A stretch of 63,276 nucleotides of DNA, counting the filler, from Pseudobdellovibrionaceae bacterium (lineage in GTDB: Bacteria; Bdellovibrionota; Bdellovibrionia; Bdellovibrionales; UBA1609): the NCBI GenBank assembly GCA_030591685.1. It is 7 parts of 7 records of this genome, joined end to end, with 100 filler letters (N's around TTAATTAATTAA, not from the genome) between each part and the next. Parts side by side here need not be neighbours in the genome. Positions count along the whole stretch, not along the records: positions 31,356 to 40,908 come from JAUVAX010000064.1; 6 more parts are not named here. One strand, written 5' to 3'. A program made the position numbers and the translations under genes. Below are positions 8,404-40,876 of the stretch, piece by piece (positions within the stretch are counted from its first letter, which is position 1; each line of letters begins with the position of its first letter). Below the pieces are notes generated by a model. The model had not been told where the DNA came from. It searched no databases and saw only the letters and a list, made by a program, of their open reading frames with translations.

Positions 8404-8525
8404 AGAGAGATGAGAACGCAAGAGTTCGACAAAAATAGCAGGATGCTTTTTTTGCACAGGCACGCAGTGACTGCCCGCAGGGTGGAGGCCACGAAGGTCG
8501 ACATAAATCTCTCACTTATGCACCA
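8404..8525 (+). repeat. tRNA-derived structured repeat, copy 1 (contig edge)
   Basis: Reverse-complement homolog of 40612-40726: GAGTTCGA-caaaaatagc-aggat-gctttttttg...gccc-gca-gggt...AATCTCTC...GCACCA. Confidence 0.85.
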
Positions 8526-36096: not shown

Positions 36097-36645
36097 TTAT
36101 TGGGTTAACAAAATGAGTTCTTTTCGCGAGCATGACTTAATCACACCCCTCATTTGAGCCCACACCTTTGCCTTTACAAAGGAGCGCTTAATAACGTTTG
36201 CCAGTATAGGGTAATCACTCAGCGGCAAATTGCAGACGCTCACTTGAGGCCTTTGTTTATCGGGCCTCGTATAGCACTTAACGTGAGAGTTAAAGGCAAA
36301 CTGCTCTACCTCGTTACAAGACAACCTCTGGTCCTCAGATGCGGTTTGTTCACACCTCTTAGTATGCAATTTTTTTTGCAAACACAATGCGGCAGAACTC
36401 AGCCACACGTAGCCTTGTGAGCTAAAATCTATCCAAAGTCTTTTATCAAACAGTAATTTTGAACAGTATTTATAAGCAAACCCAATATAGTAGCCTTTAG
36501 GCCCACAGGCTTGATCCACCTCACGGTGAAGATAATAACTACAATCAATTATTTGTTCTGAAGGGGGGGCGAAGGAAAACCTCTCCTCAATGCCCTCACA
36601 AGTGGCGCTTGCACTGTGGCCACTAATGTTAAACATTATAATCAC
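36097..36645 (-). CDS. Cys-rich secreted protein, stanniocalcin-like
   Basis: C..Y...CG..GY....YKYC...FS..G..W......CLQ..L...C....AF.SH..CY...VC.L pattern; a hydrophobic signal-like stretch continues upstream of the GTG. Confidence 0.6.
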   Translation of the reverse strand: MIIMFNISGHSASATCEGIEERFSFAPPSEQIIDCSYYLHREVDQACGPKGYYIGFAYKYCSKLLFDKRLWIDFSSQGYVWLSSAALCLQKKLHTKRCEQTASEDQRLSCNEVEQFAFNSHVKCYTRPDKQRPQVSVCNLPLSDYPILANVIKRSFVKAKVWAQMRGVIKSCSRKELILLTQ

Positions 36646-39706: not shown

Positions 39707-39830
39707 TTCATGTCGGGCTCCGGCCCTCCACTCTTCGGGCCGCTCACTGGCGTTTTCATCTCTCCCTCCACATCGGGATTAGGAGTTCTTTTGTAATTCA
39801 ATTAGTTTTAGTATTTGAAATTAATGGTGC
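39707..39830 (-). repeat. tRNA-derived structured repeat, copy 2 (internally deleted)
   Basis: Direct repeat of 40620-40790 lacking 47 nt between two CGTT microhomologies. Confidence 0.9.
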
Positions 39831-39997
39831 AAGAGAAGTATTGGAATTACAAACTGAGTGTTCTCGGTGGGCAGTTTAGAGGAAATTTCGAAAAGCACGT
39901 ATCCATGACTACACAATCATAATACCAAATCACAGGCCCGACACAATATGCGCAGCGTATTGTGAATGGGTTAATTCTACACCACCATTAATAATTA

Positions 39998-40519
39998 ATG
40001 GGGATGTCTATGATACGAAACTTAACGAGAGCAGACTTTAATGAATACTATCGAGTCAGATTAAAAGGCCTACAAGAATATCCTGTGGCATATTCCTCAA
40101 TGCCAGAGTTTTTTATAAATGCATCTCAAAAAATGCATGATGATCTTCTAGATGATAGCGCCAGTGATTCAAGTTTTTCTCTTAAAGGCTATTTTGAAAA
40201 TGAAAAACTGTTAGGGTTGGCCGGACTGAAACCCGAAACGAGACAGTGTGTAGACCATAAAGCGTCCCTGTGGGGGCTCTATGTGGATCAGGACTATCAA
40301 CGAAATAAAATTGGATCCAAATTAATTCATGCATTATTGATAGATGCGATTAAAGACAAGAAATTGAGACACATTAGGCTGGCAGCATCTGTTTCATGCA
40401 AAAATGCTGTTGATTTGTTTTATAAAACCGGTTTTGAAAAATATGGCCTCGAACGAAATAGTATTCGTGAGGGTTCAATTTTTCATGATCAGGTTTATAT
40501 GCAAATTAGTTGTGTCTAG
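39998..40519 (+). CDS. GNAT acetyltransferase
   Basis: RL.GL...P.AY.S, HKASLWGLYV...YQRNKIG, A..LFY..GF..YG.E. Confidence 0.9.
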   Translation: MGMSMIRNLTRADFNEYYRVRLKGLQEYPVAYSSMPEFFINASQKMHDDLLDDSASDSSFSLKGYFENEKLLGLAGLKPETRQCVDHKASLWGLYVDQDYQRNKIGSKLIHALLIDAIKDKKLRHIRLAASVSCKNAVDLFYKTGFEKYGLERNSIREGSIFHDQVYMQISCV

Positions 40520-40601: not shown

Positions 40602-40784
40602 TGGCTAAAAAGGGAGAGATTCATGTCGGGCTCCGGCCCTCCACCCTTCGGGCAGCTCACTAGCGTTCGCCGTGCAAAAATAGCTTCCTGCTATTTTTGT
40701 CGAACTCTAACGTTCTCTTCTCTCCCTTTACATCGGGATTAAGAGTTCTTTTGTGGTTCAATTTGTTTTAGTTTTTGAAATTAA
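40602..40784 (-). repeat. tRNA-derived structured repeat, copy 3 (full length, abuts the tRNA-Ser 3' end)
   Basis: In tRNA orientation: spacer, GAGTTCGA, multi-hairpin insert, AATCTCTCCCT...GCCA; 11-bp closing stem 40609-40619/40719-40729. Confidence 0.9.
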
Positions 40785-40876
40785 TGGCGGAGAGGGAGAG
40801 ATTCGAACTCTCGGTACACCCTTAAGTGTACGGAGGATTAGCAATCCCCTGGTTTCAGCCACTCACCCACCTCTCC
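40785..40876 (-). tRNA. tRNA-Ser (GCU)
   Basis: GGAGAGGTGGGTGAGTGGCTGAAACC AGGGGA TTGCTAA TCCTC, long variable arm, GAGAGTTCGAATCTCTC CCTCTCCGCCA. Confidence 0.95.

Follow-up and report, generated by a model that had tools for sequence, protein, structure and literature searches.

An RrA/RrB/RrF-type core behind a tRNA-Ser gene of a Pseudobdellovibrionaceae bacterium, in an element that very probably belongs to the tRNA-linked repeats

In the present study, an element behind a tRNA-Ser(GCT) gene of a Pseudobdellovibrionaceae bacterium (GenBank assembly GCA_030591685.1) was shown to contain a core homologous to the tRNA-linked repeats (TLRs) of E. coli, closest to RrA/RrB/RrF, and we are highly confident that the element itself belongs to the TLRs. 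As shown below, the unit combines two copies of the 3' part of the neighbouring tRNA gene, one inverted and one direct, with the core in the T loop of the direct one. The best explanation overall is a TLR with an RrA/RrB/RrF-type core, a cassette origin and an RrB-like RNA action; we consider this account probable, the whole mechanism being less sure than the membership. The window, that is, the whole stretch of DNA analysed (63,276 nucleotides, filler included), contains the following features of interest.

40785..40876, minus strand: tRNA-Ser(GCT) gene, donor of the copied T arm and tail (ARAGORN; Rfam RF00005)
40730..40784, minus strand: spacer of copy A, A-rich, without structure on folding (0 kcal/mol)
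40712..40729, minus strand: tRNA tail and T arm in antisense, forming the 5' side of the 11-bp closing stem, with GAAC after it
40700..40709, minus strand: sense copy, 5' T stem and TTCGA, the first five bases of the T loop
40621..40699, minus strand: 79-nt core, conserved, with four hairpins
40699-40675, minus strand: core hairpin 1, loop AGGAA
About 40672-40653, minus strand: core hairpin 2, variable
40652-40644, minus strand: core C-GAA-G triloop hairpin
40639-40628, minus strand: core hairpin 4, loop CGGA
40602..40620, minus strand: remainder of the T loop (AT) and degenerate tRNA-Ser tail, ending in CCA
39998..40519, plus strand: GNAT acetyltransferase gene, between copies A and D
39825..39842, minus strand: short tail-like remnant ending in CCA, before copy D (from sequence only)
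39707..39824, minus strand: copy D, antisense arm present, hairpin 1 deleted, tail gone
8404..8525, plus strand: copy C, at the start of contig C44, with antisense arm, core and CCA-ended tail

The first-pass annotation had placed the end of the tRNA correctly (40876-40785, minus strand) and had read the element as a T loop split by an insert; at 40729-40602 of the same strand, TTCGA is indeed followed by the insert and then by AT and the CCA-ended tail, although the insert measures 79 nt and not about 75 nt. The element begins 56 nt downstream of the tRNA gene, and its core begins 79 nt past the tRNA CCA on the same strand, the corresponding distance in copy B being 80 nt past tRNA-Ser(TGA). 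The 11-bp closing stem and the hairpins named in that annotation were recovered in an RNA fold of -50.7 kcal/mol (z -4.9, equalled by none of 200 shuffles); the DNA fold gave a z of -4.4. A point beyond the annotation is that the 5' arm of this stem itself repeats the T arm and tail of the tRNA in antisense orientation. The tail of copy A is identical to the tRNA end over a run of 12 bases, followed by five diverged bases (one extra) and GCCA, and any 12-mer of this tRNA tail is present in just 25 of 200,000 random 200-nt windows of the genome; judged by its sequence, the tail appears clearly derived from its own tRNA, though decayed. Arm and tail of copy A depart from the tRNA sequence by a change that matches between them, and seven unpaired bases, not four, follow the closing stem, which forms with a probability of 0.95 when the transcript is cut at the tRNA end. 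When tRNA and element were folded together with the tRNA unconstrained, the tRNA misfolded and the probability of the stem was 0.12. No terminator was found between the tRNA gene and copy A on that strand. In one public DNA run, which may be the source sample, contigs tile the tRNA, the element and the GNAT gene without difference. A single contig of run X1, possibly from another organism, doubles back 33 bases over the tRNA 3' end (window 40783-40815). The coverage in two RNA runs is that of the tRNA alone, with 2-3 mismatches, and counts neither for nor against expression.

The genome (2.66 Mb assembly, 40% GC) contains four copies, A to D. The three copies noted earlier all lie in the window (A, the deleted D, and C at a contig start, with its upstream DNA not assembled), and a fourth, B, follows tRNA-Ser(TGA) on contig C59; A, B and C each end in CCA. 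Copy D lies about 900 nt beyond copy A, after the GNAT gene, has a spacer 88% identical to that of copy A, and scores 23.8 bits with R2, a covariance model of 50 cores from Bdellovibrionota alone. In copy B (C59:606-790, L054), the tail leaves the tRNA-Ser sequence after six bases and from there on is complementary to the upstream arm of the same copy, apart from a short deletion. A pentapeptide-repeat gene comes next; the arm-tail pairing tested for this copy has a probability of 0.02. A sixth genome match (C95, E 0.35) of R1, another model derived solely from Bdellovibrionota sequences, was rejected, as no core is present there and the match was gone with R2. The GNAT gene is patchy in Bdellovibrionota (3 of 301 genomes at E<=1e-15, its own genome counted); its closest homologue (57%) and two weaker ones have neither core nor tRNA nearby, and no relatives were confirmed in metagenome contigs. 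Genes between repeat copies also occur at loci L041, L074, L089 and L105, where pairs or triplets of repeats surround small genes, some encoding HTH proteins (L074:1400-2530, L105:2522-6017, L041:753-2228 and L089:236-4901); both repeat copies at L074 are identical across 176 nt. Elsewhere in the window, an 8-nt unit is repeated eight times in tandem at a contig start (41009-41072), adjoining the stop codon of an acetyl-CoA hydrolase/transferase gene, and a cysteine-rich ORF of 182 aa without a Pfam match occupies 36097-36645 of the minus strand.

The same frame is observed in the homologues from Bdellovibrionota: T arm and tail in antisense, followed by the 5' T stem in sense orientation, then the core and finally what is left of the loop together with the tail. 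The 5' piece reads TTCGA, or TTCA where the tRNA reads TTCAAAT, and the host genes include Ser, Arg, Pro, Gln, Val, Glu, Met and Ala tRNAs and tmRNA. The frame was compared with the host's own gene in 23 copies having an upstream tRNA or tmRNA, which are kin and therefore non-independent. Matches to the own gene exceeded those to permuted partners for the tail (14.6 vs 10.6), the antisense arm (8.96 vs 6.69) and the 5' stem (3.70 vs 2.53 of five bases), each reached in 0 of 20000 permutations, and the own upstream gene was strictly the best tail match in 19 of the 23 copies (again 0/20000); these tests are overstated because many of the 23 copies sit at serine tRNAs. Decay of the tail is widespread, as in copy A: all 19 bases are kept in just 10 of 40 scored homologues, and identity, aligned without gaps, drops from 0.98 to about 0.6 toward the end, with values of 0.60, 0.70 and 0.62 at CCA and no rise. 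The closing stem is not constant across the homologues, since the better partner of the antisense arm is the own tail in 11 of 30, the tRNA tail in 16 and neither in three ties. A terminator-like hairpin with a T run, which copy A lacks, is present in 27 of 33 homologous spacers and is often part of a long palindrome extending from the tRNA tail through the antisense arm.

The core is the conserved part of the unit. A covariance model had been proposed as a check in the first-pass annotation, and strong stem covariation was observed among 50 diverse cores, hand-picked from 106 collected in Bdellovibrionota: 168 two-sided cells, compared with 38 in shuffled and at most 54 in slid controls, and a covariation score of 0.58 against 0.16 and at most 0.14, respectively. 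In this alignment 93% of cells pair and two-sided changes occur at 16 of 18 pairs; an independent covariation count was also made. Folding energies were much alike for sense and antisense strands, both as RNA and as DNA. Hairpin 1 alone accounts for 124 two-sided changes and a single one-sided change, and just 8 of its 945 pairs are G·U, vs 51 of 912 in tRNA stems, while the whole core, at 4.7% (123/2639), is comparable to tRNA acceptor stems. Of the 105 C-closed triloops in 104 cores, 74 are C-GNA-G, against a genome-wide figure of 162 in 3578, with all four bases seen at N and the reverse form once; the same triloop is found in rrB and rttR. With R2, the core was found in 43 of 151 Bdellovibrionota genomes, including 9/9 of one genus represented mostly by complete genomes, and it is therefore dispensable, as the other 108 genomes have no detectable core.

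The first-pass annotation had noted a likeness to tRNA-linked repeats of gammaproteobacteria, and this link proved well founded. A search of the whole E. coli K-12 chromosome with R2 revealed three strong matches (47.7 bits, E 1e-11, these E-values being rough), the next reaching 14.9 bits, and the three are the rrA/rrB/rrF places behind 5S rRNA. The rrnB match, the one checked against the K-12 annotation (the other two share its core sequence), lies 77 nt behind rrfB, between both terminators and before a repeated 5S end, in agreement with the published placement of rrB between the rrnB terminators (PMC8144298). The strict filters of the chromosome search missed the tyrT repeats; scored against 66 kb of background, all four tyrT/tyrV (rtT) repeats reached 14.5-19.5 bits with R2, above the best background value of 11.4, and three of the four ranked at or near the top of the background with R1. 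Pairwise alignment to rttR alone was weak, with 1, 4 and 55 of 1000 shuffles equally good. The 14.9-bit match (K-12 183633-183696; L155:1501-1564) is in register at the triloop and the last hairpin, lacks a neighbouring tRNA, and is possibly a free degenerate core.

The resemblance to RrA/RrB/RrF covers the full model, the order of hairpins, the C-GNA-G triloop and GGA in the loop of the last hairpin, together with a degenerate antisense arm, a 5' piece, the core and a repeated 3' end. However, the frame here is the T arm of tRNA-Ser and theirs is the 5S end, and theirs lie between two terminators, whereas copy A has no preceding terminator and a degenerate tail. Because rrB shares the frame around a 5S end, the split site, some 16-19 nt short of a stable RNA's 3' end, is not specific to T loops. 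RtT/rttR resembles the element in lying behind a tRNA, in having an antisense T arm, a GAAC/GTTC hairpin and the CCCGAAGGG hairpin, in the splitting of the T loop after TTCGA, and in its CCA-bearing tail; unlike the element, rttR has a core without GGA and another hairpin 1, and the E. coli tails are exact and in tandem. As defined in the available text of PMC8144298, TLRs end in 18-19 bp of the upstream RNA gene and have no known function; the 178-bp tyrT-tyrV repeats are credited there to Egan and Landy 1978 and Rudd 1999. Thus, since the gammaproteobacterial link holds, the element is not new in kind, despite the lack of a matching family when Rfam was consulted for a characterised one. At gathering score Rfam identified tRNAs alone in the whole window, RtT (RF00391, gathering threshold 45 bits) had no genome match at E<=1, and 16 homologous loci at E<=1 gave tRNA, sX4 and weak overlaps, nothing more. 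The weak sX4 match in the element region (E<=10) was set aside, being driven by the tRNA and without a link in the sX4 text available. BLAST against phages, plasmids and E. coli returned 22-26-nt chance matches or none, and a scan of viral contigs for the element pattern found none.

Several observations point to the core as an inserted cassette. When the core is taken out, the T loop is re-formed in 27 of the 35 copies that could be scored, the overlap being 0-2 bases (12 unscorable ones were dropped), and in 21 of the restored loops the cut falls after GA. No upstream tRNA was seen in the flanking DNA examined for 57 of the 106 cores, 35 of which also have no T-loop frame, and just four of 40 tRNA-less loci examined contain any Rfam RNA. 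Filled and empty loops were compared at 15 loci, with both junctions found in ten. Five of these (L092, L093, L090, L064 and L098) align across or up to the junction to L144, a core-free TwoAYGGAY-like repeat (scores 73-101), with the core placed after GA in one TwoAYGGAY-like loop; for L092 the uninterrupted loop is visible in L065 and L098. Among the remaining five, the loop was recognised by eye only at L062 and L094, and three gave nothing. The available text of bioRxiv 10.64898/2026.09.22.753630 describes TwoAYGGAY as a dispersed multi-hairpin repeat of variable copy number and a proposed Csr sponge; the terms 'tRNA-linked', 'T-loop' and 'RtT' are absent from that text. The core resembles this repeat, as far as described there, in its dispersed multi-hairpin form, GGA-type loops, variable copy number and mobile-like spread. 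In contrast, TwoAYGGAY has two adjacent AYGGAY loops on a basal stem, and the core, with different loops two hairpins apart, is found inserted in TwoAYGGAY-like loops and does not match them. RF01731 (TwoAYGGAY) has no match in this genome, and R1 misses TwoAYGGAY-like elements below threshold. Such sub-threshold modules cap near-perfect palindromes of 40-80 bp at L144-L151 (genomes G155 and G093, positions about 1440-1700), with arms unique to each locus, and the module at L148 lies in the spacer behind tRNA-Leu(GAG); the sequence of these palindromes suggests fold-back copying of flanking DNA.

Herein, we propose that the core is a small cassette that would be set in just after the GA of a hairpin loop, with an overlap of 0-2 bases, probably as single-stranded DNA and by an enzyme encoded elsewhere, and that the tRNA-derived frame probably results from fold-back copying of the 3' end of the gene. 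The C-GNA-G triloops and the scarcity of G·U suggest the handling of single-stranded DNA; according to the available text of PMC13037366, extra-stable mini-hairpins of DNA are formed by GNA loops alone, the RNA counterpart that was tested being far weaker. The single-stranded DNA recombination substrate considered in the first-pass annotation thus gains indirect support for the core, although no enzyme was found. Transposases and integrases near the copies revealed no mobilising enzyme linked to the core: no R1 match better than E 0.33 was present at 15 Y1_Tnp-like loci (four genomes, about 1.5 kb of flanks), and there was no core near three tyrosine-recombinase loci. Six weak Y1_Tnp (RAYT/IS200-like) matches of 242-283 aa occur on contigs C47, C21, C50, C49, C84 and C35, none adjoining a core. 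REP/REPIN and IS200/IS605 elements, as described in the available text of PMC8266576, are similar in their short hairpin DNA, strand specificity and dinucleotide junction, whereas no HUH transposase or cognate TnpA-REP gene of the REP/REPIN-RAYT kind is present at any copy tested. More broadly, and as a tentative hypothesis that we hold to be possible but not probable, the TLR cores (rtT, rrA/B/F and those of Bdellovibrionota) might constitute one ancient family of non-autonomous single-stranded DNA cassettes, inserted after (N)GA in T loops, the 5S tail, TwoAYGGAY-like loops and their own loops, with fold-back flanks, an enzyme acting in trans, and CsrA binding as a later use.

A role of the RNA is suggested by the CsrA link. 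The host genome encodes csrA (PF02599, contig C35), and copy A has two GGA hairpin loops, AGGAA and CGGA, as candidate CsrA sites. Across the cores, CA(N)GGA was counted 153 times on the sense strand vs six on the opposite strand and 31 in shuffles. Of 196 CA-N-GA motifs, 144 have G at the variable position and 52 read CATGA, CACGA or CAAGA, and GGA is therefore not strict; the E. coli rttR core has no GGA. The core is present in 43 of 137 genomes with csrA and in none of 14 without it (naive Fisher 0.007, the 14 genomes being kin from five families); in family f17, it is present in 0 of 28 genomes, 25 of which have csrA. In the available text of PMC8144298, RrB is a processed RNA bound by CsrA through GGA loops with a KD of about 100 nM, and deletions of RrA/B/F have modest effects. 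By homology to RrB, and with no intervening terminator, co-transcription of copy A with the tRNA is plausible. Read-through from tRNA-Ser would yield a precursor, an RNA of 130-180 nt would be freed from it by tRNA 3' processing together with cleavage at the copied tail, and the two GGA loops of this RNA may bind the host CsrA weakly, so that CsrA titration would be tied to tRNA transcription, as proposed for RrB.

The main competitor is that the core is only a non-autonomous single-stranded DNA element (REP/REPIN- or IS200/IS605-like), the A-N-G-A loops being recognition or insertion sites of an enzyme and not CsrA sites, and the RNA a by-product. The excess of triloops extra-stable as DNA, the two-sided changes and near absence of G·U in hairpin 1, insertion after GA in loops resembling those of the core itself, the tandem and nested cores that exist, and the many cores without an upstream tRNA, of which few loci contain an Rfam RNA, all favour it. 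However, the G·U content of the whole core is tRNA-acceptor-like, the loop counts are inflated by shared ancestry, the transposase-like and recombinase loci have no core near them, the E. coli homologue is a processed CsrA-binding RNA, and G dominates the variable loop position; we consider this reading rather unlikely. An integron-like recombination site at which gene cassettes, in this case the GNAT gene, would be captured behind the tRNA might be suspected from that gene between copies A and D, the pentapeptide-repeat gene after copy B, the four further loci with genes between copies, and a folded strand that rebuilds a duplex T arm. Yet contigs C44, C45 and C59 encode no integrase, the GNAT homologues elsewhere lack core and tRNA, the neighbouring genes are unrelated, and a phage integrase lies beside three of 63 neighbours scanned, with a serine recombinase and an IS110 transposase each beside one. 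The element was also not found in the viral contigs and phages searched, and the short pieces of tRNA end that precede displaced copies are consistent with ordinary island insertion at a tRNA; such insertion accounts for the genes between copies, and an integron-like site is quite improbable.

The tRNA mimic proposed in the first-pass annotation, that is, a released acceptor/T minihelix bearing CCA and serving synthetases, EF-Tu, RNase P or the CCA enzyme, has fared poorly. The stable closing stem of unit A cut at the tRNA end, the matching change of arm and tail, and the CCA ends of A, B and C speak for it; on the other side, seven unpaired bases follow the stem, arm and tail of copy B hardly pair as tested, the stem is not constant among homologues, CCA is kept no better than its neighbours as the tail decays, and the core also sits in the E. 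coli 5S tail, so that this role seems more improbable still. Neutral debris of recombination at tRNA sites would agree with the deleted copy D, the many decayed tails and the patchy distribution, but compensatory changes at 16 of 18 pairs and a homology detectable across two phyla make debris already unlikely for the core, and we regard it as the least credible of these readings.

The locus itself adds one more TLR, and its value lies in the comparison, in which the rrB core has homologues behind tRNAs in another phylum and the filled and empty loops define the ends of the core. Relative to the literature found, two points are new, namely that the rrB core is homologous to tRNA-linked cores across phyla, and that loops outside RNA genes occur in filled and empty form; the literature searched, with Rudd 1999 and the supplements of the papers outside the search, held no account of TLRs in Bdellovibrionota or of TLR cores as insertion cassettes. 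Many cloning vectors likewise carry the rrB core, located between their rrnB terminators (PMC8144298, available text). The question of how TLRs form and function can now be put to two direct tests, one for a processed CsrA-binding RNA and one for a moving single-stranded DNA cassette. If the ancient cassette family proposed above is true, it would account for the origin of TLRs, a puzzle since 1978, and for their switch from one host RNA gene to another.
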